From NCBI GenBank assembly GCA_008632985.1, contig QPGO01000017.1, positions 248,001 to 312,000 on the forward strand: DNA of 64,000 bases. The letters run 5' to 3'. This document shows positions 1-33,901 of this stretch, in pieces. The notes below the pieces were generated by a model. That model was given only the letters and a program-made list of their open reading frames with translations, was not told the origin of the DNA and did no database searches. The DNA is from Psammoneis japonica. Taxonomy: Eukaryota. Position numbers and translations under genes: made by a program. Numbering within the stretch: position 1 is the first letter of the stretch; each line of letters opens with the position of its first letter.

Positions 1-399
1 CCAAAACCCCCAAACATGCTGACTGACTGAGACTCTTTGTGCAAATTCTGTGCAAGATTTTTCAGCCAGCAGCTGGCTGGAGATGCTCCCCAGAGATTGC
101 TCACCCTTTTCTTTGGCAGCACATCAGCTGGAAGAAGGGAGAGTGTTTCAGCCATTGGCTGGCTCAAATGTCTTTTCTTCATTTTGCTTTTGAGCCATGA
201 ATGTGCTGGCTGTGTTGATGGGAGATTTTCTTTGATGTTCAACAAAGCTCAAAACATTTGTTTTTCTGTGCAAAAAAGGGCATGCGTGTGCCACTTGAGT
301 CTGGAGCAAGTCCTCTGAGAGGGAAAAAGAGCACAGCTTTGTGGGGGGTGGAACACTTCTGCTCATTTGGCCCCAATCTCATTTCACTGAAAACACTGT

Positions 400-1600
400 G
401 AAAGACTGCTTGCCTCTTCCATCTCATCAAAATGGCAACACAGCTGCACTTGAAATGGCCAACAGGTCTGCTTGCCAATCTTGCTGGACTTCCCTGTCTG
501 CTTGTGTTTGTTTTCAAATGCATGGCTTGATGTCACATGTCAAGGTGCAACTCAGATTTCCCCTCAAGATTTGGCACAAGCTGCCACATTGGATCGATGC
601 AAAACAATGCAATGGGTTGTCCAAAGCCAACCATCTGTTGCCCAAATTTGTCATGATTGTCAAAAAAGGCAGCAAAGGCAGGAATGTCTGAATGAGCACA
701 AGCAACAATGGTTGCACAGCTGGCAATGCAGTGAATGCCAAAGTGCTGGTCACCAACCAACACTCTGGCATTGTGGTCTTTTGGCAAAGATTCAAGGTGC
801 TGTGAGAGAGGCTCCAACCTTCATTTTAAGCAAACACACTGGCCCACATGCATGCCTTTGCTTTGGTGCTCATTGCTTTTGGTTGGCCAGCCAAAGACAC
901 AGCAATCTTCAGCACAATGATGCCAATGCCAGCAGCAGCAACAAATGCCTCAAGAGCATCCAAATGGTCAACACATGTTAAAAACACCCAGTGAAATGCT
1001 CCATCCACAACTGCACGCAGTTCATTTGCAGTGCCAGGTGGACAAGAGGAGTGACCATCATTGACAACAAGGTCTTGATGCACAGACTTGAGGACTGAGA
1101 TGTCTCATGCTTTTTTTCATGGCTGAACTTGTGCCAACCATTTCTTGGAGCATCTTTGGTGGCAAGCAACTTGGAGCAGTTCATGAAGAAACGCTCTTGC
1201 AGGAAAAGCTGGCTGGCACATTTCCATCATAGACTCGCTGCTCTGAGATCTGGAACAAGTGAGTGGTTGTGACAGCACCTTCACAAGCTCTGATGTTTCT
1301 TCAGTCAAGTCAACACTTCTCAGTGCAGCAAAAGCATTTCATTGATTTCTTTCATGCCAAAGCAACTCTGAGGCTTGCAGCAAGGAAATCTTGCTCAGCA
1401 CTGGTGCCTCTCCGAGCCTGTCAACAAAAAAGCTGCAAGCTCTTCTCTGTAATTTCATTGCCTCAGCATGATGCACAAACCACCAAGTTGCAGAATTTGT
1501 CACCACTTCCAATCAATGCTAAAATGAGGTCAAAAGAATCCTTGCCCATCACTGCACCTCTCTGGGGAAATAAACCAAGCCTGATTTAAAGTGCCGCCAC
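400..1600 (-). mobile_element. Degenerate 3' fragment of a non-LTR (LINE) ORF2
   Basis: Minus-strand remnants resembling LINE ORF2 C-terminal motifs (SSCPPGTANE Cys knuckle near 1040; QCGSLCQILRGNLS near 560). Heavily frameshifted; borders approximate. Confidence 0.35.
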
Positions 1601-3613
1601 ACCTTTGCCCAGCAACGCTGGTGCTGGCCAACCCCCCCCACACCTCCAGCACACCCTGCAAGGGATGAGGCACCTGAGCCATTGTCTCCCAGGGGAGACG
1701 CCCAATTGAAATGGCTGGAAATGGCGTGTTTGCCATGTGCCAACAACTTCTTTGCTTCCTTCAAACTTTGCTGCAGGTGGGGCCAAACCATGGAAATCCA
1801 GCTCTGGATGCAAGTGGTGGAGAATGTCTGATGTTCTTCTGCCAAATCTGGCAAAACTCCTCAATCTTTGGCCAAGTGCTCTTGTCGCTCATTGCAAATT
1901 GCCATCAATTCATCTTTGGCCATGCGCCCATGAGATGACTTGCAAGAATCTACACTGTGGCCATGCATGAGCTGATTGTGTTTTCTCCTCCCACAATTCC
2001 AGCCATTGCTGCCACACAAACAATCCAATCTGAGCTGTCCAGTCAGGCGGTTGTTTGTTCTCAGCTTGGTGGCATTGACTGAGAATGCCCAAATTGCACA
2101 AACATGAGCATCCTGACCTGGCACCATCCCATGTCTGACTGTGCTTTCCACAGAGCTCTGCATTGGGGATCAACAACATCCTCAGGACAGGCTGTCTTGT
2201 TGTCAAACCAAGATTGCAAGGATTCCAGCAAGAAATCGCAAAGAGTGGGCATTGCGTCAATGTGATCACAGCACTTCTGCAGGCCTTGCAAAAATCTCCA
2301 ATGCCACACTTCCTCACTTGGACAGCAAAGAATTCCAATCCTCCATGGGATGTTTGTGTGTTGGGCAATGAGACGGGGATGCACTGGGTTTTGTGCAGGT
2401 TTGCAATCTTGTCAGTTGGAAGGAGATGGTGGATGAGTTCAACAGTGCCAAGGACTTGTTTGGACTGTCACTTGATGAGCACTGTGTGAGCCTGCCAGTT
2501 GGTCAAGTCCATGACTTCCGGATGCCATTGACTCCATTCCACAATGTGCTCTAGCAACTGGGGAGCAGTGGCAGTGCATCACATTTGCTGCTTGCAACTG
2601 GAAGTCCAAGCACCATCCTTGAGAACCAAGTGAGAATGGCAACAAGGGGACGGAAGCACTTGGGATGTGCAACAGGAGCAGCGACCTTGACATGTGCCAG
2701 CCTGTCAGCTTGGACATTCACCTTTGCATTTGATGGAAGGGGGTGGATTGGGTTGTTCCTGTCTTGGCATCCCTTGACCCATTTCACATTGAGGTGGGGT
2801 GAAAGGACCAACTTGGAATCTCTCATTGATGTGAAAGTGTGAAAAATTTCATTGATGATGTCCCAATCAGAGGCAAGTGCATTTGCTCTGTGGTGCTGTG
2901 TGTAAAAATTGCAAGAGTCATTTGATTTGTCCTCCAGAGAGCCAGAGCGGGAAGGGTGAGAGACAATTGCTTCAGACAACACACCAAAGACTTGTTCTTA
3001 CAGCAAAAGTCCATTTCATGAGCCAACTTGGATTGGCAATATTCCATGAATTGGCAAATGCAGCAGACAATGGAAAGGATTTTCTGCAGGCTTCTGCTTG
3101 GTGCAACAATGGTTCATTCCCAAATGCCAGCCCAGCACCCAGCACAATCCACCAGTGGGACACCTTGGAGTGCAACAGTCTGTCCAAATGTGGAGCCCTC
3201 ATTCACTGACCCATCACTTCCTGCAGAGTGAGCTCTGCAGAAACAAAGCAGTGCATCAAGATGAGGGGGGATGCGCGCAGGTCCAACTCAGCAAATGATG
3301 CTGACCCTCATTGTGGCAATGCCTGCAGCATTTTGAGAAACAATGCTGTGGCTGGCTGGGTTGCAGACAGAGACAGCAAGGTTTGTGGAAGATCAAATTT
3401 CCATCTCTCATTTTCAGTTGTTGACAGTTCAACACAGGGTGAGATTCATCTGATGGAGCAGGAGCTGTCTGTCTCAATCTCACAAATGGAGTCCGTTCTC
3501 TTGCCATTGACCGAGAAAATGTCACGCCCCACAAATCTTCTTGGGTGTGGGTGGTCCTCTGAAGGAGAGACACGTGCTGATGCCTGCACACACATCTGAG
3601 ATGGAGAGACTGG

Positions 3614-4060
3614 TGCAATGTGCAGCTGCTGACAAGAGTCAATGCATCACGGCGACGTGTCACAGGCTTTAAATGTCACAAAGGGCGTGACAAAAATGAC
3701 CTTTTGTCTGCGTGCATGCTGCATTGTGAATTCACAGCAGAGTGGTTCATCGCAACCATCAGGCAGGAGGCCAGGGGTTCAAAACCCTGAGTGGGAGTTG
3801 TCTGCAGCAACATTGATCACTGTCGAACGCACAAAACTCTGTGCAGTTCTGTGTGTTCCTTCGCACGCACCCACACTGTTCTGCCAAAACCATGCAGTGT
3901 CAGCACACGCCAGTGAAGAGCCGCACGGACACGTGATGCATGGGGAGGAGTGCAATGTGCAGCTGCTGATGAGAGCCAGCGCATCACGGCGACGTGTTGC
4001 AGCCTTCAAATGTCACAAAGGGCATGACAAAAACAACCTTTTGTCTGCATGCATGCTGCA
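3614..4060 (+). mobile_element. TRIM (non-autonomous miniature LTR retrotransposon), copy 1, 447 bp
   Basis: 110-bp direct repeats 3614-3723 and 3951-4060 with TGCA...TGCA ends; polypurine tract GGGGAGGAG 3942-3950; 4-bp TSD CTGG (3610-3613 / 4061-4064). Confidence 0.9.
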
Positions 4061-5509
4061 CTGGGGTCCCCTTTTACTTTCATCAGGTCCAGAACAAAGC
4101 CATCTGGCAGAGTTGTGTTGGAGACCAAAAGCACCTGCAAGTGGCGGCAATTTGTCCAATGGATTCTTGGTGAGTGAAGAGCTGAGACTGAACAGCAACA
4201 TCCGCAATGTGCTGGTTGGTTGTCTTGCTGCAGGGGAAGCACACCATCACAAGACAGTTGATCTTTGCCCTGGATTCTGTGTGAAAAAGAGCAAATGGAA
4301 GCAAACCAGCAGGATTGCATGTGAGGAAGCTCTGTGTCCACATCCCAAAAGAAACTCTTGCCTCTTGCCTGTGCCCAAATTCAGTTGAATCTAAGCAACT
4401 GAGACGCGCAACAGTTTGCAATGTTGATCCTTGCCAAGCTGCAAATTTTTCACTCCTTGGGAACATTTCAACAGTTGTTGCAGTTGCGCCATGGCACACC
4501 TTGTTTGACATCCAGGGATCAAAGTCCTCCTCTGCTGAGAGCTTGCGGACAGCTTTGCATTTCTGTTGCACCTGCATTTTGCAAAAACAGCTCACATTGC
4601 CTTCTGTTGGACTGTCTGCAATTCTTCGGCAAGGAAATTCAAGTTGGCCAATGCATGTGTCATGGAGGACAGGCAGCATGCATGGCAATGGTGCCAAGAT
4701 TTGGTCCTGTTGAGAGGACATGATCAAAGAAAAAGTGCTGCAGCATTGCTCTTCTTTTGTGGCTTCTGTGGCTGTGTCTTTTGGGTGTCAATGGGAGCAA
4801 CACAGTGCCCAAGAGCCTTGGAGGAGTGTGCACTGAGAGTTGTTTGCTGGGCTGGGAAGTGGGCCCATGTCTGCAGAAAAGATCTCAACTTCAAGATCAT
4901 CATGATGCAGGCAGATAAATGGCACACCATGTGCAGTGAAGTCCCGTTCAATTGCGTGAAATGAGCACTTTGGTGCTTCAAGTTTGTGCCCAGCAGTGTC
5001 AAGCAAATCGCGCTGGAGTTGGTTGTCTTGTTCAAGAGAGGAAGAGAGATCAAATGCAGCTGGTTGGGGACTTGCTCAGAAATCATCAACTCAATTGGAG
5101 GTGTTGTCAATGCAGCCTCTGTTGCGCACATGGATGAAAGAAAGCATTTGTTGCTCTTGCATCAAAGATGTCAAACAACTGGCTGCACAGCGCACTCCAA
5201 TGCCACAGAGAACTCCCTGTCCTGTGCCACAGAGGGGATGTTCAGAGGAGCATGAGTGACTTTGGTGTGCCAGGCCCAACAGGGCACAAAGCCAGTGCCG
5301 TGCGTGGCGAGGGACAGACATGTCAACTTCTGCCACTTCTGAAACCATGCTGTCACTTTGAGAACACAACCCCCCCACAACAGCCGGGGTGTTGCAATCA
5401 CAGCAAGAGGGGCAATTGTCATCACTTGTGAGCTGAGTTTTGGGTGAAGCCCTGGACATTTCCAACATCAAGTTCTCTGAGAACACGGGAGTTTGAGCAG
5501 ATGAAAAGG

Positions 5510-5956
5510 TGCAGCATGCATGCAGACAAAAGGTTGTTTTTGTCACGCCCTTTGTGACATTCAAAGGCTGCAACACGTCGCCGTGATGCATTGGCTCTTG
5601 TTGGCAGCTGTGTGTTGCACTCCTCCCCATGCGTCACGGGTCCATGCGGCTCTTTGCTGATGTGCACTGACACTGCACGGTTTTGGCGGAACAGTGTGGG
5701 TGCATGCGAAGGAACGTGCAGAACTGCACAGAGTTTTGCACGTTCGACAGTGATCAACGTTGCTGCAGACAACTCCCGCTCAGGGTTTCGAACCCCTGGC
5801 CTCCTGCCTGATGGTTGCGATGAACCACTCCGCTGTGAATTCATGGTGCAGCATGCATGCAGACAAAAGGTTGTTTTTGTCACGCCCTTTGTGACATTTA
5901 AAGGGTGCAACACGTCGCCGTGATGCATTGACTCTCATTGGCAGCTGTGCATTGCA
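5510..5956 (-). mobile_element. TRIM copy 2, 447 bp, opposite orientation
   Basis: Reverse-complement homologue of 3614-4060. LTRs 5510-5619 and 5847-5956; PPT (CTCCTCCCC on +) 5620-5628; own 4-bp TSD AAGG (5506-5509 / 5957-5960). Confidence 0.9.
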
Positions 5957-5958
5957 AA

Positions 5959-8765
5959 GGAACAACATCCACAGATCCCGAGATGCACATTTGGTGATTC
6001 TCCATGTTCTGTGCCAGCTCTCTCCACTTGAGGACACTTGCAACAATGTGAAAATTGGCCTTAAAAATGTGGGTCACCCACAAGCAGTGCATTTTGTCAT
6101 TCCTGGGCTCTTTGAATGTTGTCACATTGACAATGTCCTTCCATCAATCATGCAAACAACCCCACTTCAAAGTGCAGCTCATCAGATTGAGGCAAATTGC
6201 CAACAAGGTCTGTTGCATTTGGCCCAAGAATTCTTTGCTTGATGAAGGATGCCCTTGATCATCTTGATCTTTTATGTGAGGTGCAGGCATGTGCCAGATT
6301 TCAAGGAGGTTGATGTAGATTCAGACCACATCTTGAGTTTGGAAAAAAGAGAGGCTGTCAAAAGGTGACTCTGGACTGCGGGAGGAGTGCATCTGCAGAT
6401 GTTGGGTCAGCAAAGAGGTTGCCTCATTCAACTGACCTGTTTTGCACTCTCCATCAAAAATTGGTTCAGCCATGAATGCATTTCTTTTGCACCCTGGGTC
6501 TGCAGATGGGGGAGGGACAGTCAGTGGAGCACCTTGGGCTTGACCAAAATGATGTTCGTTGTGGGACTGCAAAGCTGCTGCATCATCTTCTGGAGCATCA
6601 TCAATGGCCCAGTTCTGGCATGTCTTGGGATCCTCATGTGGGTGCTCAGGTGCCTGAATGTTCCCAATGCCAGAGTCTTCATGATGGTGCTTGCAAGCAT
6701 TTGTCTTTTGGGAAACTCGCTTGGTTTCTTCTGCACAGCGCAGGTTGTGAAGAACTGTTGCCTTGGCCTTGGAGAGTTTTGCATCTTCCAATTCAAGTTC
6801 AGCAACATGAGAGTCTTGTTTTTTGTCTTGATGTTTTTGACTTTCTTTTGCAACCACTTGGCGGCACTCAGGACATGCCTTGCACAAGCAGCTGTGCATT
6901 CCTGTGTCATCGTGGGAAGCAAAAATGAGTCAGACAATTTGTGCTTAACTCAAAGGATGGAAGGAACCATGTCCATGCAGTTGCAGAACATTGGCGCTGT
7001 CCTGGATAGAACAAAAACTTGTTTTTGGAGATTTGCCAGCTCAACTGACCATTCAGGTTCTTTGCACCTGTGGCACTTCTTTGCTGTGGAAAGAGATGAC
7101 TGGAGCATGTTGTGGTCAAGTCATTCCACCAGTCAGTTGTTCGGAGCATCAGATTGGAGCAGTGCCTCTGATCAAGCAAGGATGTTGCATCCTTCTGCTG
7201 GAGGGCCCACAGCTTCCAGGTGTGTGGCAACATGCTTGCGGGAGTTCGCTTGAAGGTTTCAGAGCTGAAACCTGGGCAAATCTGCCAGGGGGTTCCCAAA
7301 CAAAGCAAGAGCATCAAAGTTCACAAAATGAGCTCTATGATTGGAACAACATCCACAAATCCCAGGGTTGCACATTTGGTGATTCTCCATGTGCTGTGTC
7401 AGCTCTCTCTACTTGATGCTTGCAACAATTTGAAAACTGGCCTGGCAAATGTGGATCACCCACAAGCGGTGCATTTTGTTGTTCCCAGAGGCTCTTTGAA
7501 TGTCATCACATTGATGATGTCCTTCCATTGATCATGCAAACAACCCCACTTCAAAGCGCGTTTCATCAGATTGAGGCACATTGCCAACAAGGTCTGTTGC
7601 ATTTGGTCCAAGACTTCTTTGCATGGCAAAGGATGCCCTTGATTGTCTTGCTCTTTTGTGTGAGAGTGCAGGCATGTGAGAACTTCCAGTGTCCAAGGTG
7701 CAACCCAGACTTCAAGGAGGTTGATGCAGATTCAGACTGCACATTGAGTTTGGAAAGAAGAGGCTGTCAAAAGCTGACTCTGGACCAGGGAAGGAGGAGA
7801 AGGAGTGCATCTGCAGATGTTGGATCAGCAAAGAGGTCACCTTGTTCAACTGACCTGATTTGCAGCACCCTTGTCCATCTGAAATTGGTTCAGCCATGAT
7901 TGCATTTTTCCTTTGCACCCTGGGTCTGCAGATGGGGGAGGGACAGTCAGTGGAGCACCTTGGGCTTGACCAAAATGATGTTTGTTGTGGGACTGCAAAG
8001 CTGCTGCATCATCTTCTGGAGCATCATCAATGGCCCAGTTCTGGCATGTCTTGGGATCCTCATGCGGGTGCTCAGGTGCCTGAATGTTCCCAATGCCAGA
8101 GTCTTCATGGTGCTTGCAAGCATTTGTCTTTCGGAAAACTTGTTTGGCTTCTTCTGCACAGCACAGGTTGTGGAAAACTTTTGCCTTAGCCTTGGAGAGT
8201 TTTGCACCTTCTAATTCAAGTTTGGCAACATGAGAGTCTTGTTTTTTATCTCCATGTTTTTGACTTTCTTTTGCAACTTGGTGGCACTCAGAACGTGCCT
8301 TGCACAAAGCAGTTGTGCACTCCTGTGCCATCGTGGGAAGTAAAAATGAGTCAGACAATTTGTGCTTAACTCAAAGGATGGAAGGAAACATGTCCATGCA
8401 GTTGCAGAACATTGACATCATCCTGGACAGAACAAAAACTTGTTTTTGGAGATTCACCAGTTCAGCCAACCATTCAGGTTCTTTGCACCTGTGGCATTTC
8501 TTTGCTGTAGAAAGAGACAACTGGAGCATGTTGCAGTCAAGTCATTCTGCCAGTTGGTGGTTTGGAGCATCAGATTGGAGCAATGCCTCTGATCAAGCAA
8601 GGATGTTGCATCCTTCTGCTGGAGGGCCCACAGCTTCCAGGGGTGTGGTGACATGCTTGGAGGAACTTGCTTGAAGGTGTCAGAACTGAAACCTGGGTAA
8701 ATCTGCCAGGGGTTTCCTGAACAAAGCAAGAGCATCAAAGTCCACAAAATGAGCTCTGCAATTGG
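5959..8765. repeat. Tandem duplication of ~1.4 kb inside the LINE (copy A ~5959-7345, copy B ~7343-8765)
   Basis: Both copies begin GGAACAACATCCACA.ATCCC and end CACAAAATGAGCTCT..ATTGGA, and share translated blocks such as DSGIGNIQAPEHPHEDPKTCQNW. Confidence 0.9.
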
Positions 8766-11700
8766 AGAGGAGATCCTGCACCCAAAAGCTTTGCACCCAC
8801 AAAGGTCAACAGCAGACAGGGCTCCAGGAGTGGCCAATGCACAGCCCAAGAACCTTCTAGATCCTCAAAAACAGGTGGAAAATTCAAGGTTTTGTGTTGA
8901 CAATGCATGACATCTGACATGTTAAATTGTTGAGCCACCATGGTGATCAAAGAATCAGAATTGTGACAAAAGTTGGCGTCAAAATCACCAAAAAGCATGG
9001 CTTCCTGGTTCTGTTCATCCCCAAAAAGTGCTCCAGAATGTGGGCAAGGTTGTGACAAAAGGCACGTTGTGGGTCAGGATTGGCTTGCCACCCTTGCTGT
9101 TGAAGTGAAGCCACCTGTTGTGCATGAGCAGTGGTTTTTCCTGCTGCCAATGAAGAGCAAGAACATGCACAACAACAAGATGCAAACATCACTTGTCAGC
9201 CGTGTTTTCCACAAAAAATTTGGATTGACCACCTCCCACCTCCCAAGGGGCTCTTTGAGTTGGGGGCAATGCCGTGCTGATGGGGAGTTGCATGACAGCA
9301 AAGATGTGCCACCCAGTTTGCGCAGAGCAGTGGAGGAGTCGTGGAAGACAAGCAAGCAAGTCTGCCATGATGAAGGGCTCATTTTGCTGCAGCAGAGCAA
9401 CTCTGATGGACTTGATGCTGTGTTGTGTCCAAGCATGTCTTGGACAAGCCAACAACATGTTGGCTTGAACTTCTGTTGCTGCTTGGGCACAATCATTGAA
9501 TTCTCTGCTGCACAAGTCAAAGGAGCACTGTTTGCATTAAATGCACACAGGCAAAAATGTGATCTGGATGTTTGGGTTCCATTTGATCTCCAACTGGTTC
9601 ATTGGCAGACAGATCAAAACAATCAATGATGCAAGAGGGGGGAACTTCATCCGGACAACAAATGGGGCCCCTGCTGTGCAGCAGGGTTGGCTGCAGTGGA
9701 AGGGGCTTCACCCCTCATCTTTGAGCTGTGCCACCTCAAAAGGAGACTTGAAAATGGACAAAAGTCTGCATTGTGGAAAAGAGGTGGGTTGGATGACTGG
9801 CCCCTTCTTGGAGAAATTTGCAGCACCAGAGTCATCAAGATCAGCATCATGCATGGTCGTGTTGTTGGGAGGTTTGGTGGTGGAAGACCCAGCAGGAGCA
9901 GAAACAGCAGCTCTCTTGCAGTGAGGCAATGCAGGAGCTGATTGAGCTGCTGGATTGGCAAGTGACTTGTGAATGACAGGCTGAATGGTGGAAACAAGAT
10001 TTGCAATGGATTCTTGTTGCATGAGCTCCAGAGCAGCAATGCGTTTGTCTTGCTCTTGTTGATTCTTGAGCATGAGTTGCTTCAACTCTGCAATTTTGTT
10101 TGTCTCAGAGGTCAGCTCCAACATTGGGGCAGCACCAGGGATTGCTGATCTGGGAGCATTCTGCAGAACTTGGGGACATGTCTGAAATCCACTGTGGACT
10201 CCCACACTCTTGGGAACTGGAGGATCAACAGACTGAGGTTGCTGCCATGGGGGGCTGTGGAGCCAGTTAGAGAAATGTCAGAGACATCCAGGGATGCCCA
10301 GCTTTGGATGCTTGTGCAGGTGATGGACTCAATGGTGTCTGACATGTTGTCATCAGTGCTCAGAATCATGTGACTGGGGTGTCCAACTGAGGGAACAGCA
10401 TCAGCTGGCAAATCATTCACCCAACTTTGAAGGTTGTCCAAAATGTGTTTCTTGGTTTGGCAAAAAAGTCCTTGTGCACAAGAACATTGTGCCTCAAAAC
10501 AGAGACAATGCACTTGGATGGCATGACATCAAAAACACCTGGCACTTGCTTGATTGTGTCCGACATGTGGAAGGAGACATTCTCCATGTGGCGCAACATC
10601 AGAATGACATGGGTCTGGGCAGATGTCTCATGTTGTGCTTGCAAACGGCTTTGTCAAACTCAACCGGTTGAGTGTGCCACCAATGGGGAAAAAATGAGAA
10701 CTAAAGGTTGCTCTTTTGGGACCTCCAGCAAGGCAGTGATCATGTCTTTTGTGCTGTCTTGGGCAGCTTCAATGGCACAGAAGGTTGGTTGCAGTGAATT
10801 GTCCTTGAGACAAGCGGCAGATTGGATGACAAGACAGAAGGGAGCACGTGAACAGCTTCAAGGAGGGGGCATTGCCACAAGTCATTTTTGCACCACATCC
10901 ACCGGGTGATGCTTCAGCAAGCAATCCATGAGGAAAGCAACACGGGAAAGATCAATGGCAGTTTTGTCCCGTTGATGCAAGCAAATGAAAATTCTGTTGT
11001 CCTTGAGAACTTCATTGACAAAGGGGATGTTCTCAATGTCCAACAAGGACAGAGAAGTGCAGATGCGGTGAGCAACAACAGAGGCAACAAGATCCACAAA
11101 TGTGATGGACAACAAAATGTTGCAAATGAGTGAGACCAGAGGTTCACTCAATGATGTTCACATCCAGAATTTCTGATCCACAGTTTGAAACAATCAAAAT
11201 TTTATCCATGAGAGGGTCCTGAGATGCTTTCTGTTGCAGGGTGTGAAGAATCGCAGTGTGACCCATGGCCGGTGTTGTGGAGGTGTTGTCATCAGCAGAG
11301 GCAAGTTCAAAACAATGAGTTGTCTCCTTGAGCACAGAGTGTTGGGTTTTCCTGACCCAGGGCCAGCCTGTGGCAGCAGGGGAGTCATCATGGTGATGGC
11401 TGTTTGGTGCAAAAGACATGCAGAATTCCACCTGGAAACTGCCAATGTGTGCTTGCAAAGAAAAGCACTGCACCTCTCTGGAGATGATCATCTGGCAGAA
11501 AAGAGACATTCTGACACTCAGAAACTGCACAGAACAAGTCTTTCAGAGCCAGCTGCAGCTGGAGTTTAATGTCTTCCCCTGTGCTCATTGCATTTGCCAT
11601 TGTTGTTGTTGTTGTTGTCAACACAATTTTGATTTCTTTTCATGCCCAGCTTCTTCTTCAAATGTCATCAAAGCACAAGTTTCCAGTGTGGCCAACAATG

Positions 11701-12258
11701 TCAGGAGCTCTTGAAGCTCAAACTCTGTGCTCACACTTGGCTCTTCCCACCAAGCTTTCTACAACAACCTTGAGCTTGATTGGACTTTTTGAACAATGTC
11801 AATGACGCAGTCTTGGATGGCCTCTAAAGTCTCTAAACAACTCAAGTCTCATGTGTGCTTGGTGAACACCCTGGCAGGAAGGAGCCACCTGTGCTGCAGC
11901 TTGACACAATGGCAGCATGAAGCAACATGGATTTCCAACACAATGCCAGACCTCATGACAAGCTCAATTTTTGCTGCTGGCTGCTTGGTTGTGCTTGGAG
12001 TCAAAGCACAAGTGCACTTGTTTGAGCTCACAAGATCAAGCAAAGAGAGTGGTGCACCCCTGGAATGAGAGTCTCTGCTCCTGGGTTTGGCAAAGGCAAA
12101 CAAGCTTTTCATTTTCAAGAGTCACGCAAAATCAAATTTGTGGATCAACCCTCCAATTGATGATCCATTCTGCTTGTGACTCATTTTTGGATGAGCCCTT
12201 TGACCAGTTTGAAATGTCTCATCCCACAGCCTGTTAAACAAATGACATCATTCTCCAA

Positions 12259-12547
12259 TTGAAAACTGGCAGATGCACAGTCATGAAGACATTGCAGACA
12301 TGAAGCCAATTCCTCATCAATTGATGCAATCAACTCCAATTTAAAGAGACTGCAAAATGTTCAGAGTCCCTCTGTTGAGTCATGCTGAAAGTCATCTGTT
12401 CAATGCTCAACACCAATGGAGAACCACTTCACTGCATGCTCACAATTTGTGAACTCACTTCACTGTGACAACTGAAGTCTCCATCAGCCCCAACACTCTG
12501 GTGAATGTTGTCAGCTCTGGTTCTGACACTTGGCAGTCAGGTGTTTT
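12259..12547 (+). repeat. Copia 5' LTR (hypermutated)
   Basis: Aligns with 24058-24300 (GAAAACTG..AGATG.ACAGTCATGA; CTCAACACCAATGGAGAACCAC; GCTCACAATTTGTGAA.TCACTTCACTGT); carries an extra internal segment of ~55 bp; lies just upstream of gag. Confidence 0.7.
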
Positions 12548-15017
12548 GGTGCACTTCCTCTGCACTGAGCAAGACAGAAGAGATGACCAGTCATCATGGT
12601 GTTTTCTCTGACACCTGCTCAGGCCATCACAGGCATTCTTGACTTTGTTGAAAAGGCACATCAAGCCATTTACAACAAGGCAGTCAAGACAACAATGGAA
12701 GCACAGGAGAAACCACTTCAATTCCTCAACAAGACCTCAAAGATTGAGCTGCCAAGAATGGTTGGGATGAAGATGATTTGTTCAACAAAGATTGTGTCAG
12801 ACACCACCAATTTGTTGACATGCTGTGGTCAGATTGAATTGGACCTCATCTGCAAATGCAAGTGCGTGCCCATCAACAAACCGGCAAGGCCAGCACAAGA
12901 CACAAGGATGCTTTGCCAGCTTCTTGTGAGCACACTTTCAGAAGAAGGCAATGCCATGATTCTGGTCTGGGAAAAGCAGCACAAGATTGTCAAGAACAAC
13001 AAGACACATCTGTTGGGAAACCTTCTGTTGAAGGCAACAATTCAAGAAAGTTGCTGGACACCAATGTGACTGCAATGAGCATCAAGATGAAGAAACTCAG
13101 CAATCTTGACAAACATCTCATCGCAGTGTCAAGTGACATTATCAAATTCAGCCAACATGTGCTGCTCTTGTTGCAAGCTCTCATGTCCCACAGACAATGG
13201 AAGACCTCCAATTGAACTTGTTCAAGGGATGCCTTGCAGCACCCAACAAAACATTCATTGATTGTGTCTGTTGCAAGCACAACAAGCATGACAAAGGAAA
13301 TGACATGGGTCCCAACGAACTGGTGAACCTCACAGTCAACAAGCAAAAAAAGATGGACAGTTGAGATGCAGGAATGGAGTGCACCATCCCTCAAGGAGGA
13401 GAAGATCCTGGCTCTAGAAGCAAAGACAGATGCCATCAAGAAATCATCTTGAGGCAAGAAAACCAATCCCAAGCAGAGTGGAAATCCCAGGAGTCAGAAG
13501 AAAGGAGGAAAAAACTTGTGGTCCCAAGCCTGGTTGGTTGAAGAAGGACAATAGACTCATGAACAATCAACTTCACAAGTGCCAATGTTGGAACAACCGG
13601 CCAAAATGTCATTGTCACAAGGACACGGGCAGAAAGTGTGATGGAAAGTGGCCCATCCACAAGCCATTGGCATGGAAGGGAAAGCCTTTGTTGCTTGGAA
13701 ACTTGGTGGTTCAAAACATCCTCCAGAAAAGAACAATGAGCCAGCAACAACCAAGAAGATCCAAAAAGACCTCAAGTCACTCAAGCCATGCATCAGAAGC
13801 TCTCACCACTGTTCTTGCAGATGAGATTGAGTCCTCTGACAAAGAATGGCTGGTGGAGCATGGTGACAAGCCAAACTGTGATTGGAGAATCCAGGGTGTC
13901 ACCATCTGCATGATGTTGTTTGCTGCATGGTTTGCAAGTGCCTTGCAGCCATGCCACTGTTGCTGCCACCAGTGCAATTTGTGTGGACCGCTGCAGCCTG
14001 CCGCTGGATCTCCATCACAGTTCATGAATTTTCAAGGGAAGTGGCTGCAAACACTCTTTCAAATTTGTCACTGGAGCTCATGTGTCACTGACAATTGTTG
14101 TTTTCTGTCTCATTGTTTCTTTTGGCAAGGACCCCAACAACCCCAATCTGCACTGTGTTCTATGATCCAAATGTTGGAAATGCGGACAATCAATGTGGAA
14201 GGCCCAGTCAAGCATGCAATGGATGGGAAAACAAATTGGTTGATTTGTTGAAAACAAGATCAATCAACTGTGCATGCAGCCAAGCAATCTCAAAGAGGAA
14301 GAATCAAGTGAGTCAAGGAACATCAAGGAAGATCAACAACAAATGTTGAACATGGTGCATTCAATGGGCATGATGGCAGCACTGGCAATCCCAGCAGTGT
14401 GCATGACAGCCCAGAATGATGCTCTCAAGCAAGAAAAACATGACTCAATTCAACACAGACTTGGGACCTGCAGGTGTGGACAACTGATGCACTGGATGTG
14501 CACCCAATGTGCAGCAGTGGACTTTGCAAGCAAGCTCATTCCAAGCAAGCAAGCTGCAAAAGGATTTGGGTCAAGAACAACAGGAGTTGTGATGGGCACA
14601 TTGATCTGGCCATGGTGTGATGACAATGGGGCTGCTCACTTGTTTAAGATCCCAAACTTGCACTGAGCACCCAATGGCAAAAGGTCCATCTGCCAAGTCC
14701 CCAACACTGGGTCAAAACACAAAAGGATTGCAAGCCAATTGAGGGTGTGGGAGAGAGCACAGACTCTGGGCAGTGCACCCAATGCTGGAGCCAGAAGAAA
14801 AACAAACTTGCTGTCCCCCCAAGCCCAGAAAGAAACAATGCAACATTTAATCTTGCTCCTGGTGATCAAAAGTTTGAAGCCTTCTGCACTGAATGTGGAG
14901 TCAATGATGCCATTGAAGACAACAATCCTGTCAAAGCAAGTGAGGTGAACATTGTGAGCAAAGAGGATGATGATGAGGAACAAGAGTCCAGTGATTCAGG
15001 GTTGGCAATGCACACTT

Positions 15018-15139
15018 GGCAGATGGTGGATGCTGGGTGGTGGGAAGTGGATGGCAGATGCTGGATGGTGGATGGTGGATGCCAGATTGTGGATGGCAGA
15101 TGGCGGGTGCTGGATGCTGGATTGTGGATGGTGGATGCC
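15018..15139 (+). repeat. 7-bp minisatellite (GGATGGT/AGATGGC variants)
   Basis: Roughly 17 degenerate tandem units, e.g. GATGGTG GATGGTG GATGCCA GATTGTG GATGGCA. Confidence 0.8.
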
Positions 15140-15642
15140 ATGAATCCAATCAAGGCTGTCTCATGACATGCCAAGTGAGACAAGCACACCTCAGGGTCAG
15201 AGGACAACACTCCAGTCTCCACTCTGTTCAATCTGGATGGACCATCTGAGGATGCAGGCAGAGCTTGTCTGCCTCAAGCCACAACAGACAAGGAAGATCA
15301 GCAAAGAGAAAAAGCATTTGCAGAGTTGTTGAGACATCATCAGAAACATGGGCATGGCTCATTCTGGAAACTGCAAATGATGGCAGAGCAGGGAGTCATC
15401 CCAAAACACTTGTCAAAATGCAGTGCACCTGCTTGCTCCTCATGCACACTTGCCAAACCAACTGAGCACAAGTGGAGAGACTGAAACAAGAAGGCTTGTG
15501 ATCCACAGAGCCAACTCAACCCAGACAAGTGGCATCAGTGGACCAAATGGTCTCACCCACACCAGGATTGATTTTGCAAATGGCAGGGTTCCCAACAACC
15601 AAGCTGAGGCACAAGTGCATGACAGCATGTGTCGACCAACCC

Positions 15643-16476
15643 TGACTTGTTCCAGACTCAGGTGGCATGCACATGCCCCTTTTCACACACAAAAAAAGTT
15701 TTTTGTGCTTCACACAACATCTTTTGCATTCAATTGTGATGATCACATTGGTGGCTTTCAAGCAAAATGAACAGATGAAGTCCAAGCCAACTAACAGCCC
15801 AAATGGCCACAGCTTTTGGTGACCATGACAGCCGGCTTTTTTGACCTTGTGGAAAATTGAATGATGCTGCAAGGCCCACAGCATTTTGCACAGTCTGTGT
15901 CATGATCAACAAGAATGAAAATGCTTGTTGCAGGCTGCAGCACAGCAAAAAGAAGTCCAGTCTGTCAGCAACAACAATTGAGTCTTGTGCCTCACTCACA
16001 ATTTGCCTTCAAGGACCAAATTTTTTTCATTGCCATGTGCATTTCCTCTGTGGCATCAACTGACACAAGTGTGTCAGTCATTTGTGCCAACAAATCAGTG
16101 AAACAGGGTTCAAAGTTGATGCCACTGTGTGGGCCGAGCTTCACTTCTTCTCACATCTGCCAAAACTTGTCAGTTGGTGAGTGTTTTGTTGAGTCTGTTG
16201 AGGTTAACTTGCACCCACATGTGTTGGCAAAAGACAGTTCATGTTGCACTTAAGACCAAATGTTTTTACACAAGAACATTGATTTGTGCCTTTCTGATCA
16301 CAAGTTGTGCATCAGAAAAGTGAGCTCTCATCTCATGGCGCCATTTGGCAATCAATGACTCAATCCATCCTTGGTTTTGAATGCATGGGCACACACATGA
16401 GAACTTTCTGCATGTGCCCATGACAACAAATTTGAAAATTGCGTTGCATGCAAAAACCCAAGTCTGGAACAAGTCC
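15643..16476. mobile_element. Non-autonomous TIR DNA element (MITE-like, 834 bp) inserted in the Copia integrase
   Basis: Perfect 15-bp inverted repeats GACTTGTTCCAGACT (15644-15658) / AGTCTGGAACAAGTC (16461-16475); flanked by ACCC on both sides; splits the integrase motif VDQ...(Y/C)VHLQKT. Confidence 0.75.
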
Positions 16477-19162
16477 ACCCCAGTTTCAGCTGTGTGCATT
16501 TGTTGCAAAAGACTGCAAGCATGGAAGAGATGTCAGAAGGCAAGAAAGCTTTTGAGTTGATGGCAAAAAATAATTGCAGAGTCAAAATCCTTGCTTGCCA
16601 TGCAGACAATGGGGCATTCAAGGCAAAGCAATGGGTCAAGCATGTTAAGACCAAGGACAAGGCCTGACATTTGCAGGCATTGATGCACACCACATGAACA
16701 GTGCAGCTGATCACTGCATCTGCAAACTGCAGGAACATGCCCACAGCATGCTCATGTGTGCAAACCAATGATGGCCCTCAAGTGTTGCCGCCAACCTGCG
16801 GCCATGTGCTGTCCAAATGGCAAACAATGCAGTCAATGAAATGCCCAGCTTCCAAAATCCAAACACTGCACTCCAACTCAACTGCACACACAAACAGATG
16901 TCTCAAGCAACCCCCCAAGCACTGAATTCCCTGTTTGGATGCCCGGTGCACGTGTGCTGGATGACCAGCTGCAAACAAACCACCCATTTTACAAGTGGAG
17001 GCAATGCTCGAAGGTCAGAGTGCACTTGGGGACAAGCCCAATGCACAACAGGAAAATTGCCTTGGTTCTCAACAGAGCAGCAGCACATTCAAGTCCCCAG
17101 CTCCATGTGAAGTGTGACCCCAGCTTCCACATGATAAAACAGGACAAGTTTGTTTCAATGTGGCAAACAAAAGCCAGATTTGTGAGTCAGAGGGAGGCGA
17201 ACAAACCAACCCAAGGCAAGAACAAGATGGCACTTGCACCTGAAGCCACCAACAAGCAGAGCATTCCTCAGCAAGAGTGGGCAATGCCTCCCTCAGAGGG
17301 AGCATCAAAGAAGAGGAAGTTTGACAAGAACCCAAACCATGCCAACATTCTCAACAAAACACTGGAACCACCCAAAGCCAATGAGCAACTGGCACAGCCA
17401 AATGAACAGGCAGAATCACTGGAAGTGCTTCCACAGCAGGAGGGTGAGTCTCACCCTCCCAGAGTGCCAAGGACACCAGATGTGACAACAAGATCAGGGC
17501 AAAAGAGCCGGCCAGTTGAGTGGCTGGCACAAGCAATGACAGCTGAGCTTGGTGCCAATGCCAAAGGGGACATTGAGAGAGAGACATTTTCACCAGCAGC
17601 TGTCTTTCCATGTGACAAATTGCCCACATTGGATGACACTGACCCTCTTCCAGCACATGAAGCTTCAACAGATCCCGACACCATGTGCGTGCACCAAGTG
17701 ATAAAATGACAAGATTGCAAGGAATTTGTTGAGGCAGTGTGCAAATGAGTTGAGGCACAAATGAAGAATGGAAATTTTGCCACAGCTCCAAGATTGATGG
17801 TGACTGACAAGAGAAGGAGATGCTTCCAGCTGCATGGCAGATGAAATGAAAGTGGAACGTCCTGACCCACACTGTCAAAAAAATGGAAGGCAAGATTGAA
17901 TGTGGACAGATGAGAATGAGAAAAGGGGCTGGCTGTGGCAAAACATGTGCCCCGGTTGCATCCCAGAACTCAGTGCACATGCTGCTTGCCATGGGAGCGG
18001 CACACAATTGGCACACCAAGCAACTGGATTGTGTGCTGGCATTCCCAGCATGAAGTGTGTGTGCAAATTCCAAAGGGGTTTGAAATCAACAAAGGAGATT
18101 CAAAAGACTTTGCACTGCACCTGCATTGGAGCCTGTGTGGACAGAAACAAGCCGGGCAAGTGTGGAACAAACACCTGGCTAACAAGCTGACAAAAGACCT
18201 GGGCTTGTTGGTCCAGTCCAAGGTTGATGAGTGTGCACTTCACCAAGGCAAAACAATGCACTTGCTGTGTGCCAACAATGGTCTGTTGGTGGGACCTGAT
18301 GAGGAAGAAATTGATCAAATCATTGAAGAGGTGAAGGCCACCAAACTGGACATCACAGCAGAGGGAGACATGCAAGACTTCATCCTCAGCATCAATGTTG
18401 AAAGAAAAAGTGGTGGTGCCATGCATCTTGTGCAACCACACCTCATTGACCAGATGCCAAGGGACATGAAGCTAGATGGCAATGATGTCAAGCCCAAGGA
18501 CACTCCAGCCTCATCCTCAAAGTTGCTGTCCAGGCATTCCAACTCAGAGCCCTTTGATGGACACTTCAACCATGGATCAATCATTGGCAAACTGAGCCAC
18601 AACTTCCAGCAGACCCTGGAATGGAACACAGTCAAGCACTCAAGTGGTCAGAACCCCATCTGAAGGGAACAAGAGACAAAGGCACAGTGCTTGTGCCTCA
18701 AAAAGGCAAAGACTCAGAAGTGCATGTCAATGCCAACTTCAGCGGCAACAGTTGGGGCCCTCAAGATGCAGCCGCCAACCGCAACACTGCCAGGTCCAGA
18801 CATGGACGTGTTGTCATAATGTGTGCCGGATGTCCTGTGCTTTGGAAATCTCAGCTGCAAACAGAAACTGCATTGAGTTTAACCGAGAGTGAGTGGTCGA
18901 CCATCACATGAATTGACAAGTGCAGCGCCTTTTGTTGTGGTGGAATTGCTCAAGGAAATGAAGCATGACAGCTTCCCAGCACACACCTGCAAACCAACGG
19001 TTCATTGTTGAGTGTTTGAGAACAACAGCGGAGAAGCTCTAGAAACTGCAAAGACCCACAAGTGTCGTCCAAGAACCAAACATTTGAGTGTAAAGCCGCG
19101 CTGCTTCAGGGATTGTGTGTCAAGGGGAGAAATGTCCACCCATCCCACAGACACAAAGGAGC

Positions 19163-19529
19163 TGCACTATGCTCGAAGAACGAGTGTAAACGAAAGTAGA
19201 ACGAAGTTCGAAAAGTGAAAATTATGAGATTAAATTTTGCTCTGTGATTTTTGGTTTCTCCGAACGAGTTCTCAATGGCCTAAAGCTTCTGTACTGTTTC
19301 TACAGACAAAAGGCCTTTCGGAGAATATGTTCGTGACAACAGATTGTCCGGATACGATTGCCATTGACACGTAAGATGTCAACATCGTCAATCGATCGTA
19401 TTTGCAATTCTCGACATCCGATCAACTCTGTGTGATCGTTCTGTCCTTTGTACGCATCCACGACTGTGGTACGATTGACATATAAATAATATATAATCAT
19501 AAATATGTATATAACAGTCGCATACTGCA
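19163..19529 (-). repeat. Gypsy 3' LTR
   Basis: Direct repeat of 23518-23884; terminal inverted repeat TGCACTATGC...GCATACTGCA. Confidence 0.95.
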
Positions 19530-22500
19530 TTCGCCTCCCTAATTGCACATTAGAGTCATTTGTAAGTGGATTATTCGACGGACATCGACAGTGTCAATAA
19601 TGTCTCCACTTTCACTGTATTGTGCCATTAGCAATGACTGTTGTTGTTTTGTATAGGCAATATAGGGCCGTTCCAATTTCCGAATGTCTTTTGAGAGTGA
19701 CATTGTTTGTTTCTCACTTAATATGTATATATATAGTATTACGTCGAGTATTCTCATTGACGTTCTTGTTGATATGAACACAAGGACTAATTGTCCTGGA
19801 GTAAGTGTTTTTCCTGACATCGATTGTACATAGCATCGTGCCCAGTACTTAATGTACGCTCTTAATTATGGCGTTCACTTACTTACTTGTGGATTTCATG
19901 TAGTTTGGCGGGCTTACTTTATATGCCATATTGCTCTGCTGCACTACCACGTTTCATAAGTAATAATAAACGATGGTCAAAGATATTATGACCATTTCGT
20001 CTTGATAATCAATCCTGTGATGGTTATGAATTCCATTATGGATTTTTTTTTTGTACTTCAACCATCTATCAGTTGGATTTTAATCGTTATTTGGACGTTT
20101 CTTTCTGACATACCGGTGTTATTTTGTCATTCCGAAGGCACTGGTTTCGTGCACTAAGTGGATAAATGTCCATTTTTCTTTTCTTTTTCTAGATCTTTGG
20201 CACATCTCGTGTGTCGACATGATGCACATTTTAATGTCTTGCCTCGTACATTGTACAATACAACCGTACGGGTGTTGTGAGATTGTCTTTTGCCAGTGTG
20301 AAGTGGATGCGCACAATGTGTGCCAATCTGTCACTGTTTTTTCCCAAATCGTCCTTTAAAAAGGCGATTTTATCCTTGTGACATGAGCATTTTTCGATCT
20401 CGCTCGCCTCCACGAAAAGTGTTCATATGACATGTCGCGTCCGACAATTTGGAGGGAATGTCTTTGTCCCGTTTTAACGGCAGGACATTGTCGTAGGATT
20501 CAATTTTCTACAGCAAGTCGGCTGATCGCGTCTGTCGCGACGATGTTCGCCTTGCCTTCATTGCACTCTAATTTGGGGCTGAAGTTGTCAACGCACGACT
20601 TTGTCCGTTGTGTCTTGTGATCTGCACATGTGTAAATCTGTTGGCCAAACAGCACATTTCGGAATTTTGTGAGTGTTTTCACTGTGGACAGAAGTTCTTT
20701 TTTCCGTTGCAACGCACAACATTGAAATCCGTGCATGATGACAACGCAGTTTTTGATTTGATGCGCTCCACATTTTCGGAGACTTTTCGTTCCGCACTTG
20801 TGCTTTTGCCGTTTGACCTTTGTTGAGGTGAATTTGGCCAGCATTGTGCAGGAGATCGTTGAGACTGCATGTCTCGACAACAGTGGCGCATGACAACGAG
20901 ATGTCGCAGTGTTCTTTGCGTTTTTCTCGTGTTGCGATTGCTTGAATCGCCTCCATTTTCTTTGCAATCGATTGCATGTCGTTGCGCACGGAAGTCTTGA
21001 CAGTTCATTTCAAGTTAAACAGTGAAGGACTTTTGTTGTCAACCTTCTAAGCGACTGTTCCAGTCGTTTGAATGCCGCACTAAGCTGTCACTTGTGCAGG
21101 TGACATTTTGAAGTTACTTTTGTCAGGCACAAACGATCACATGTGGTCGTTCTGACAACTTCAAACCTGTTGTGAGTTCACTCAAGTGTTGCACAAAAAT
21201 GTCTGGGGCTCTGTGGATTCTCATTGGAAGTCCGTGGCACTCATTTTCTCCCCACGGCATGATTTTCGTGTGAGCACGACGTGTGCTTTTTTTGTTTGAC
21301 ATGGTGGCATTCCATGTTTGAATCAAATGGATTGCATGTGTGAAACGTTCTTGCTTCAACAGTGTTTCCTGAATGTTGGGTAAAGGATGCACCACCTGCA
21401 TGAACCTCACACTGAGCTTCTGAGTGTCGGACGCAGTCGAACTCGACCTGTTTTCTTTGGACAATGAGTCTCAGAGCGACTCATTCAGAGCAATTTCATT
21501 CTCAAGACTTCAATCTTTCATGACAGGTCAAACTCCTTTTGATTGGACGCCTCCAAAGACTATGACAGGAGAAGGTTCTCACGCGTCGTGGAATCGCGTC
21601 AGATTTTCCACGATGAGATCCACTGGTTCTTCCCATGCATTCGTCTGAGGAACTTTTCAAAAAGATTTCAACCTCTTAAGAAGAAGATTGAGTTGGTTGT
21701 GTTCATTTGGGTTAGATGCATCGCCGTAGTTGTCACTTGATTAGGATCGATGACGTGACAATGTGAGTCGAGGACCATTGGTTCCGTCATTAACTCCATT
21801 CACGGCGTCACATTTTTCAATGTGATCGGTTTTCAGCTTGAAAACATCGGCATCGAAGAGTGCACGAACATTCTTCATAGGGCAATTGCTTCTTCCCATT
21901 TGATTTCTTCATTTGCGTAGTCCAATGTGACTTGCAGGACTGGACATTAAGTCGCGTCCCATGATCATATCATTTGAACCTGAAGAAAATTTGGTGTTTT
22001 CAACATGTGCTGTTTGAATGTCAGTATGCCTTAAATTTCGCATAGTGAGAACTGAATTCGGTGTTTACTATCAGTCGTAAAGAGCTCACCCTTGGTTTCC
22101 CAAGTTTTTGGTGGCGGATTCTTGTGTTCTCAACTTTCGCACGAATTTGCGCAAAATTATGGTTGACGATGTTCCGTTATCGATAGGAACACGTAGATGC
22201 TTTTTTCTCTCCTTTCCCAAGGAAGCATTCATATAAATGATGACTCCTGGACTAGTGTGAATTATTTCTGCCTTTTTTCTAGGCTTCCTAATATCCAGCA
22301 AAGCAAATAATTCGTGAATAGACCCAAATTATTCTTCGGATTCACTCTGGATCATCCGATCAAATTGGTATTTTTCTTCACTGAGGGTATCAGAATCTGT
22401 TTCTTTGCCCTTATGCTCTTTTTCTTTGTTCGAGGAACTCGCTTTGAGTATTTTTTGAACCGCCTGATCAACCATGACGTTCAACTCTTTTTTGCGAGCG

Positions 22501-23517
22501 GCATTTTCGTTATCGCGACGCGACCGCGTGCGATTGCCATTTGAACGGCGCATTTTTGGGTCTCTTTCAGAGTCACCCTTGCACTCTTTTGCTAGTTCAT
22601 TTTTAGAATAGCTTCAATCCGTGATGCAGGTGTTCTTTTTTCAAAGATAAGACCTTGCATTCACTTTGGATTGTTCTGGCACCATGTGGGAGACCATTTT
22701 TGGAACCAAAATTGGAACCTTTTTGATTGTGGAATCAACTGCGCTATCAGAGCCTGAATTGATATGTTTTTTTGTCACAGACGTCCTCGCCGACCTCTAG
22801 ACGACTCAAACCTCAATCAGCTCGTCAAGGGTATGATCCAGTGGTTCAATATTTTGGACAGTAGGCTGATGCTGCCATCCTTGCGGTGCGAGTGATAGCT
22901 GATAAATCAGCGCTCGGTTTCCCGCTAGATTCGACTTAGAATCCATCTGAGGGTCGTATAGACTCTCATCGTTGACCTCTTGGGTCTATCAGAGGCTTTC
23001 TTGCTGTTGAGCGGCTCTGGTTTCTTCAGGTCGTCTCGAAAATAATTTCCCTGATTCTGAAGTGCATTTCCTCGGAGGACATGAGTTATGAGACGCTTGA
23101 GGTACTTTCCAACGATTCCCTCTTGCTCCTTGGACTCGAGGATCATCGATTCGGTCTCAAAAAACTCTCCAATAGTCTCCCCTTGCATGGTAGACGTATT
23201 TCTCGGATCTGATCGACTCGGAACTTGCATTCTCTGCAACCATGACTTGGTGTAGATTTTTTGATAATGCGGTGTACTTGAGAGCCCTTGATCCTTGGGT
23301 GCTTGGAATAGACCGTATTAGAGCGAATCCTCTTGTTTGGTAGACGAAAAACAGCGTTCCATCTTGAGGTGCTGCTCGGCTTGAGCTTCTTCCGCTCGGA
23401 AATCGATTCCAGCAGAACTGATGCGATTCGTTCCTGTTTATAGAAGAATTTGCAAAGGCACATTAGTTAAAATTTTCATTTTCCGTGCTTTTTACCTTCT
23501 GTGGTGTGTATACACAA

Positions 23518-23884
23518 TGCACTATGCTCGAAGAACGAGTGTAAACGAAAGTAGAACGAAGTTCGAAAAGTGAAAATTATGAGATTAAATTTTGCTCTGT
23601 GATTTTTGGTTTCTCCGAACGAGTTCTCAATGGCCTAAAGCTTCTGTACTGTTTCTACAGACAAAAGGCCTTTCGGAGAATATATTCGTGACAACAGATT
23701 GTCCGGATACGATTGCTATTGACACGTAAGATGTCAACATCGTCAATCGATCGTATTTGCAATTCTCGACATCCGATCAACTCTGTGTGATCGTTCTGTC
23801 CTTTGTACGCATCCACGACTGTGGTACGATTGACATATAAATAATATATAATCATAAATATGTATATAACAGTCGCATACTGCA
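23518..23884 (-). repeat. Gypsy 5' LTR
   Basis: Direct repeat of 19163-19529; upstream of gag on the minus strand. Confidence 0.95.
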
Positions 23885-24057
23885 GAGCAACTTGCCGATT
23901 GTCTTGCAAAGCCGGTGAGTGCAGATGCACTTCTCTGGTTGCGTCCGCTGGCAATGGGGTGGCAAGCCCACTGCATTTCTACTGGGTGTTAAGTGCGATG
24001 TCCCAAATTACAGGTTCGGCGTCTGGCTGATTGGCTAGATCATGTCAAAGGGCAAAA

Positions 24058-24300
24058 TGTTGAAAACTGCGGTAGATGTACAGTCATGAGGACGTTACTG
24101 TACGGACACAAGCCAATTCCTCTGTTGAGAGCTGAAAGCGATCCGTTCAACGCTCAACACCAATGGAGAACCACTCCACTCTGAATGCTCACAATTTGTG
24201 AATTCACTTCACTGTAACAACTTAACTCTCTATCAGCCCTAATGCTCTGGTGAACGTTGTCAGCTCTTGGTCTGACAGTCAGTAATCAGGTATTTTAACA
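24058..24300 (+). repeat. Copia 3' LTR (little mutated)
   Basis: TGTTGAAAA...ATTTTAACA ends, preceded by purine-rich AAAGGGCAAAA; follows the end of RNase H; homologous to 12259-12547. Confidence 0.7.
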
Positions 24301-24608
24301 GCGGCCGGTGCTTGAGCAGGAGCCCATTGCCCTAATAATCAGAATATTCTGATTGTGGGCTCCTGGCTTGAAGTCTGTTGCTCTTTACAAAGCACTTTAC
24401 AGTCAGGAGCGTGTGAAGCAACCTTGCCGTATTGTATCAAAATTAGTTTTATGTTATTATCCACTTCGATGGCATTGAGTTTTATAACTGCACTGTAACT
24501 AGAAGTAGGCACTGATCTGTACGGTAGGAGGCGTCTACTCGCTACAGCCAGGGCACTCACGCTGCAAGCTCGAATCTTTTACGGTGCGCTCCCGCCTTCG
24601 CTCATTCG

Positions 24609-33873: not shown

Positions 33874-33901
33874 TATCCCCTGTAACGGAGACTCAAGAAG
33901 A

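Follow-up and report, generated by a model that had tools for sequence, protein, structure and literature searches.

The Gypsy element and its long terminal repeats

We analysed a stretch of 64,000 nucleotides from the diatom Psammoneis japonica (contig QPGO01000017.1, positions 248,001 to 312,000; hereafter the window). At 19163-23884 it carries a Gypsy retrotransposon, whose insertion site lies close to the 3' end of a Copia element. We regard it as nearly certain that, in the family of this Gypsy element, a hypermutation process converts TA dinucleotides to TG or CA after insertion. The changes are specific to this dinucleotide, run in one direction, arise in situ within each copy, fall on both strands alike, lie in patches and proceed well ahead of CpG decay. 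The features of the element, including its long terminal repeats (LTRs), are the following.

19159..19162: target-site duplication, 4 bp, left copy
19163..19529, minus strand: 3' LTR (left), 367 bp, with 26 TA and 22 CG; bears both derived changes
19328..19329, plus strand: TA to TG change (A to G on the plus strand), LTR position 166-167; counterpart at 23683-23684
19362..19363, minus strand: TA to CA change (A to G on the minus strand), LTR position 200-201; counterpart at 23717-23718
19530..19540, minus strand: polypurine tract adjoining the 3' LTR; same flank in most family copies
19569..22313, minus strand: broken pol in the order protease, reverse transcriptase (RT), RNase H, integrase; frameshifted, integrase partly deleted
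20225..22020 (approximate): TA-erased interior tract over the remnants of RT, RNase H and integrase
22332..23439, minus strand: broken gag-like open reading frame (ORF) without Pfam match
23518..23884, minus strand: 5' LTR (right), 367 bp, with 28 TA and 22 CG; both TAs kept
23885..23888: target-site duplication, 4 bp, right copy

The minus-strand orientation was read from the strand of pol and the polypurine tract. By its sequence the element appears to be of the Ty3/Gypsy (Metaviridae) type, with TG...CA ends on both 367-bp LTRs, a target-site duplication, a polypurine tract and the typical order of pol domains. Unlike intact Ty3/Gypsy elements, the family copies have broken coding frames, and this holds even for the two least mutated of those examined. 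The pol region shows 29-36% identity in colinear tblastn matches with the pol (1066 aa; Asp_protease_2, RVT_1, RT_RNaseH, Integrase_H2C2, rve) of a related element, and the gag-like ORF shows 35-40% identity to the first ORF of that element. A related Gypsy with an open 1066-aa pol is nested in a family copy (L040:4651-9815, G000 C38); TA erasure is confined to its 5' half. RT_RNaseH was matched in the sister copy L035 (E 4e-5), while a Pfam search of six ORF fragments from the window element gave no match and inspection by eye revealed no canonical tRNA primer-binding site.

In agreement with the preliminary description of this DNA, the two LTRs differ at exactly two positions, 19329/23684 and 19362/23717. 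LTR position 167 reads G on the left and A on the right, position 200 reads C on the left and T on the right, and both are TpA steps. None of the 22 CpGs in each LTR is altered between the pair, and the left LTR, which lacks both TAs, does adjoin the TA- and CG-erased block 1-19162. The caution that two sites by themselves are suggestive only was well placed: with 104 of 367 LTR positions toggling TA by transition, and 56 of 367 losing TA, two out of two gives p = 0.08 or 0.023, respectively. In public contigs, all from one sample, the left junction is supported and the two variants are not assignable to the window copy. This last point would leave room for a sequencing or assembly artefact. 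Such an artefact would have to produce some 4000 changes with a graded context preference and copy-specific patches and to spare the genes at 24600-43000, and its probability is negligible.

Family sample and direction of the changes

LTRs of the family were collected by two routes. A similarity search, which favours intact LTRs, contributed the best 40 of 483 candidates. A TA-free motif gave 164 matches, and from the 100 listed we took the pairs and 20 of the 28 singles. A target-site duplication of 4 bp was found in 36 of 37 candidate LTR pairs. The remaining pair, L031, has a target-site mismatch and subfamily-discordant LTRs; it was excluded from the pair counts and kept in the patch map. 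Site tables comprise 90 full-length LTRs at >=88% identity, with partial and older LTRs left out. Several of these older LTRs, with TA counts of 0-4 and CG counts of 6-13, match the expected end state. Overall, the family forms a graded series from 1 to 32 TAs per LTR.

Comparison with other copies, the check proposed in the preliminary description, bears out the polarity assumed there. Position 167 is G in one of the first 30 family LTRs, namely the left LTR of the window, and position 200 is C in six of them; across all 90 LTRs both sites read TA, TG or CA, never CG. By this polarisation, the two window changes are derived conversions of TA to TG and CA. The TA-rich copies have their TA sites in common, whereas the TA-poor ones differ from each other in whether such a site became TG or CA (mean concordance between copies 0.61, maximum 0.81, 542 pairs). 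Of 342 pair differences, 330 fall on sites where lightly hit copies have TA. Therefore, TA is the ancestral state, and the rewriting took place in situ in each copy. At 114 sites, one LTR carries TG and the other LTR of the same element CA. Blockwise concordance means equal the shuffled null, thus erased tracts are not inherited; inheritance from an erased master copy is ruled out by this copy-specific rewriting. In one block, concordance reaches 0.88 in small comparisons, slightly over the null maximum of 0.82, and tracts may occasionally be shared between copies.

The opposite polarity would make the TA-bearing LTR the mutated one, either by a gain of TA from CA as in repeat-induced point mutation (RIP) or by double CpG decay. 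A lone difference between TA and TG or CA cannot be polarised, and diatoms possess DNMT4 enzymes related to RID (PMC9998398). Against this stand the TA sites shared among TA-rich copies and the location of the pair differences at them. Moreover, a gain of TA from an ancestral TG or CA could not produce a site at which the two LTRs read TG and CA, and C to T change within CA is rare (5 of 452 in the nine pairs introduced below). The classical RIP direction is thus refuted by the family polarisation, and we give it practically no weight.

Mutation spectrum, motif and strand

Across the 36 LTR pairs, TA, TG and CA steps take 454 of 542 substitution events (TA versus TG or CA 334, TA versus CG 6, TG versus CA 114); the remainder are CG versus TG or CA (54) and others (34), in addition to 40 gap columns. 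Transversions number only five. The TpA bias anticipated for young pairs holds across the family: among 11 lightly hit pairs, most of which were chosen for their similarity to the window LTR, 34 of 41 substitutions toggle TA, with 28% expected (p 6e-13).

A further spectrum comes from nine pairs that combine one spared and one erased LTR. Here, 192 of 508 TA adenines have changed to G, compared with 15 of 1498 other adenines (preceding A 3/568, preceding C 7/434, preceding G 5/496). C to T change at CpG amounts to 7/380, and transversions to 0/3283. The proposal that TA loss starts before CpG decay is equally upheld by the 40 heavily hit LTRs, in which TA loss is far ahead: TG or CA has replaced TA at 907 of 1200 sites, and 49 of 840 CG sites are changed; AA to AG change is found in 9 of 2240 cases. 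Double conversions of TA to CG account for 43 of 3978 changed sites (about 1%). Among 150 scored RVT_1 matches of the genome, most in-frame stops are TGA, an excess expected if TAA and TAG are being erased.

Within saturated stretches, TA retention ranges from 3% (ATAT) to 71% (TTAA). A competing-hazards fit yields 0.18 for A and 0.30 for G at +1, relative to T, and 2.6 for A at -1, so that ATAY is the preferred and TTAA the poorest context. A weak off-target class, xAT, is changed to 1.5-3.7% in the same stretches. Both strands are hit. The raw counts (TG 1870, CA 2065; binomial p 0.002) suggested an element-wide strand bias, which is gone after context correction (strand ratio 1.06).

This symmetry bears on whether the element RNA was A-to-I edited prior to reverse transcription, a possibility that might be invoked because ADAT editing of mRNA prefers U at -1 (PMC11156358). 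Editing of RNA is refuted by the equal hits on both strands; in addition, the LTRs of one element differ from each other, including TG versus CA, and a duplicated host-type gene (see below) is hit as well. We find this explanation scarcely credible.

Patches and the effect of flanks

The window element had been taken as barely touched. This does not hold: it contains a near-saturated interior tract at about 20225-22020, joined to neither flank, in which 67 of 87 TA sites (40 to CA, 26 to TG, 1 to CG) and 3 of 65 CG sites are changed. Outside this tract, changes are few. Because the copy was already heavily struck inside, we interpret the two LTR differences as probable stray hits at easy sites near a patch.

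Likewise, the idea that the LTR facing an erased domain is the one hit, with mutation spreading from the flank, fails as a rule. Flanks and LTR TA counts are both unequal in 18 pairs, of which eight agree and ten oppose; further tests of spread gave a Spearman coefficient of 0.13 (p 0.29) and four Fisher tests with p 0.11-0.54. A bias between 5' and 3' LTRs, seen in the first similarity-selected set (119 versus 21), is absent in the 36 pairs (Wilcoxon p 0.97) and was dismissed. Less than 15 TA per kb was observed in 51 of 72 family flanks; the family therefore mostly resides in already erased DNA.

Instead of a gradient, TA loss per 250-bp bin is bimodal: of 647 bins, 177 lie below 0.1 and 231 above 0.8. 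The bins correlate in three blocks, namely the 3' LTR with the untranslated region, RT-RNase H, and gag with the 5' LTR. Around reference positions 1050-1220 and 1800-2850, tract edges are found repeatedly, with modest support (57 edges, which snap to inter-site gaps; variance p 0.025, maximum-bin p 0.41). In eight copies (L062-L065, L067, L069, L074, L077) both sides are erased and the RNase H-RT block is spared; six or seven copies, including the window copy, show the reverse pattern at the 3' end.

Sharp blocks, recurrent edges, raised CpG decay inside the blocks and the discordant LTRs of L031 could also point to gene-conversion tracts or template switches from older, erased copies. However, no donor-recipient pair emerged among 37 elements, where blockwise peaks of 0.76, 0.78 and 0.88 face null maxima of 0.82, 0.79 and 0.82. 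Non-CpG C to T change is not raised in erased stretches (0.7% versus 0.8%), and conversion would still require a TA-erasing process in the donors. We judge this origin of the patches very improbable.

CpG decay and age

CpG decay is concentrated in the same patches. It affects 121 of 1857 sites in erased and 10 of 1210 sites in intact stretches of the same copy (Mantel-Haenszel odds ratio 7.0, 24 copies). Since CG methylation in diatoms sits on transposon islands (PMC9998398), this co-location suggests that the patches represent methylated or silenced chromatin.

Joint loss of CpG and TA is also what repair patches would leave, and error-prone synthesis of the DNA polymerase eta (Pol eta) type in methylated repeats would make A to G changes. 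Pol eta produces mutations at A/T within WA (PMC6037775), and in somatic hypermutation it causes A to G change at TA, as seen here. WA includes AA, yet AA is hit about 70-fold less than TA in the diatom family (3/568 versus 192/508), and transversions are missing. Repair synthesis should further leave strand runs, and none are seen. Taken together, such a repair origin appears quite improbable.

For a rough age we used the Phaeodactylum mutation rate of 4.77e-10 per site per generation, from a species with a GC-to-AT bias (PMC6604790). With zero differences at about 310 non-TA sites, the window pair is younger than roughly 1e7 generations. The family mean is probably near 1e6 generations, judging by five transversions in 36 pairs and assuming about 40% transversions. 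The process is thus recent and post-insertion; the data speak to that and not to activity today. Because pairs without transversions differ at 1 to about 30 sites, dating by LTR divergence fails in this family.

Proposed mechanism and candidate enzymes

The reading that we favour, at a probability of about 0.5, is targeted deamination of DNA adenine by an enzyme of the TadA/ADAT2 type. A host process would turn adenine into guanine in chromosomal DNA at 5'-TA steps of either strand, aimed at kilobase patches of silenced repeat DNA after element insertion. The enzyme, recruited to repeat chromatin, would deaminate adenine to inosine, and replication would fix the change. Once one strand is fixed, the partner adenine would no longer follow a T, so each TA would end as TG or CA and rarely as CG. 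Methyl-CpG decay would then proceed more slowly in the same patches and lead to doubly erased old domains.

The genome holds an ADAT2-type gene (L107), a housekeeping gene that has HAE, PCxxC and the Asn; it also contains a TadA-type gene (L104). By their motifs, L102 and L103 are presumably dCMP deaminases and L110 RibD. One open frame joins a zinc-dependent deaminase domain to a 2OG-Fe(II) oxygenase domain (L106:313-1785, G000 C79). In fungi, ADATs, which require U at -1, have taken on the editing of mRNA (PMC11156358). For the alga Bigelowiella natans, ADAT2 was proposed by the authors who described a TpA signature in mutation-accumulation lines (bioRxiv 10.64898/2026.01.13.699255).

Several points weigh against adenine deamination. 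Fungal ADAT editing of mRNA prefers A or G at +1 (PMC11156358), the opposite of the pyrimidine favoured in the diatom family. No link connects any enzyme with the process. ADAT2 and TadA are housekeeping genes, and two family searches (9 and 5 matches) revealed no deaminase expansion. Neighbouring hits form no strand runs (0.474, null 0.482), which a processive enzyme working along a single exposed strand would leave, and the methylation of the patches is itself deduced from CpG decay.

Alternatively, a palindrome-recognising enzyme might mark the TpA adenine in repeats, with N6-methyladenine (6mA) or otherwise, and the marked base would miscode or deaminate. Such double-stranded, methyltransferase-like targeting suits the strict dinucleotide specificity, the strand symmetry and the lack of strand runs. 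Eukaryotic 6mA, however, lies mostly at ApT and is not known to be strongly mutagenic, and xAT is only a weak off-target class here. We consider this explanation unlikely.

If deamination by a TadA/ADAT2-type enzyme is correct, the diatom would possess a natural adenine editor of chromosomal DNA, of interest for research on genome defence and base editing. The graded TA series, the motif and the patch maps of the family make hypotheses on enzyme and guide testable.

Relation to known systems

RIP of Neurospora and other ascomycetes changes C to T in repeats and creates TpA. The diatom process resembles it in dense, dinucleotide-specific transitions that arise in repeats after insertion, and in a link to methylated chromatin that is presumed for the diatom. 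It differs in that A to G changes remove TpA, whereas RIP is recognised by C:G to T:A changes that raise it. C5 DNA methylase (PF00145) has 27 matches in the genome; they cluster on G000 C297, C301, C10 and C28, several of them near full length and several with stops.

The closest parallel is B. natans, in which integrated DNA of nucleocytoplasmic large DNA viruses and of virophages undergoes TpA-restricted hypermutation, at a rate about 1000-fold raised as measured in living lines and active in only some of them (bioRxiv 10.64898/2026.01.13.699255). Both systems show TpA to TpG and TpA to CpA changes that are regional, far above background and aimed at foreign or mobile DNA, and in both ADAT2 is proposed and unproven. 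In B. natans, a single-copy viral insert of 186 kb is partially depleted (Rho 0.45) and the rate was measured directly. The diatom case, in Stramenopiles and not Rhizaria, concerns multi-copy LTR retrotransposons with near-saturated, copy-specific patches of 1-3 kb, a preference for ATAY and co-located CpG decay; the accessible main text on B. natans mentions neither diatoms, LTRs nor CpG.

Fungal editing by Tad2-Tad3-Ame1 likewise requires U/T at -1 and repurposes a tRNA deaminase to many targets, but its target is RNA, its changes are not inherited, and it prefers purines at +1 (PMC11156358). Our search for a TpA signature in diatoms or LTR elements found only the B. natans preprint relevant, within a coverage that leaves most subscription papers outside. 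By the literature searched, this would be the second lineage with TpA-directed A to G hypermutation and the first case in diatoms and in LTR retrotransposons. What the family-wide comparison adds is the in situ origin, the lack of a flank rule and of strand runs, the sparing of AA and the co-located CpG decay.

Tentatively, and with the odds against it, we suggest that diatoms and Rhizaria share an old genome defence of the SAR group (stramenopiles, alveolates, Rhizaria), a kind of inverse RIP in which an adenine deaminase is guided in trans to transposon blocks. The guide could be a small RNA or sequence-defined chromatin. Guidance in trans would explain why three semi-independent blocks with recurring edges appear in independent insertions, whatever their flanks.

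Setting of the element in the window

The surroundings of the Gypsy element comprise the following features.

1..19162: old TA- and CG-erased repeat domain
12369..12547, plus strand: host Copia, left terminal repeat, a putative LTR; has lost TA and CG in comparison with the right repeat
17920..18660, plus strand: remnant of a Copia-type reverse transcriptase (RVT_2) belonging to the host element
24119..24296, plus strand: host Copia, right terminal repeat, a putative LTR; TA and CG kept

The old domain holds 0-5 TA per 500 bp and mostly 0-9 CG, with two bins at 21 and 23. About 43500-64000 is likewise TA-erased, and the gene block 24600-43000 in between keeps its TA. The window carries eukaryotic genes and a sigma-70-type factor. 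For one gene located elsewhere in the assembly, the homologues with a name come from pennate diatoms, which fits a diatom host. No TA occurs in the first 95 Copia bases right of the insertion (23885-23979); the old domain therefore probably ended immediately to the right of the point of insertion. A search for a further copy of the right flank, allelic or with an empty site, found none.

Within a stretch at 51500-55500 that is TA-erased with CpG largely intact lies a copy of a glutathione S-transferase-like, host-type gene (53718-54332, minus strand). It lacks 64 TAs of its paralogue on C194, compared with 3 in the reverse direction, thus duplicated host-type genes can be hit. As to confinement to mobile DNA, the gene block is spared and this duplicated gene in the erased block is not. 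A degenerate 20-bp tandem repeat array at 45900-48430 is almost without TA and CG.

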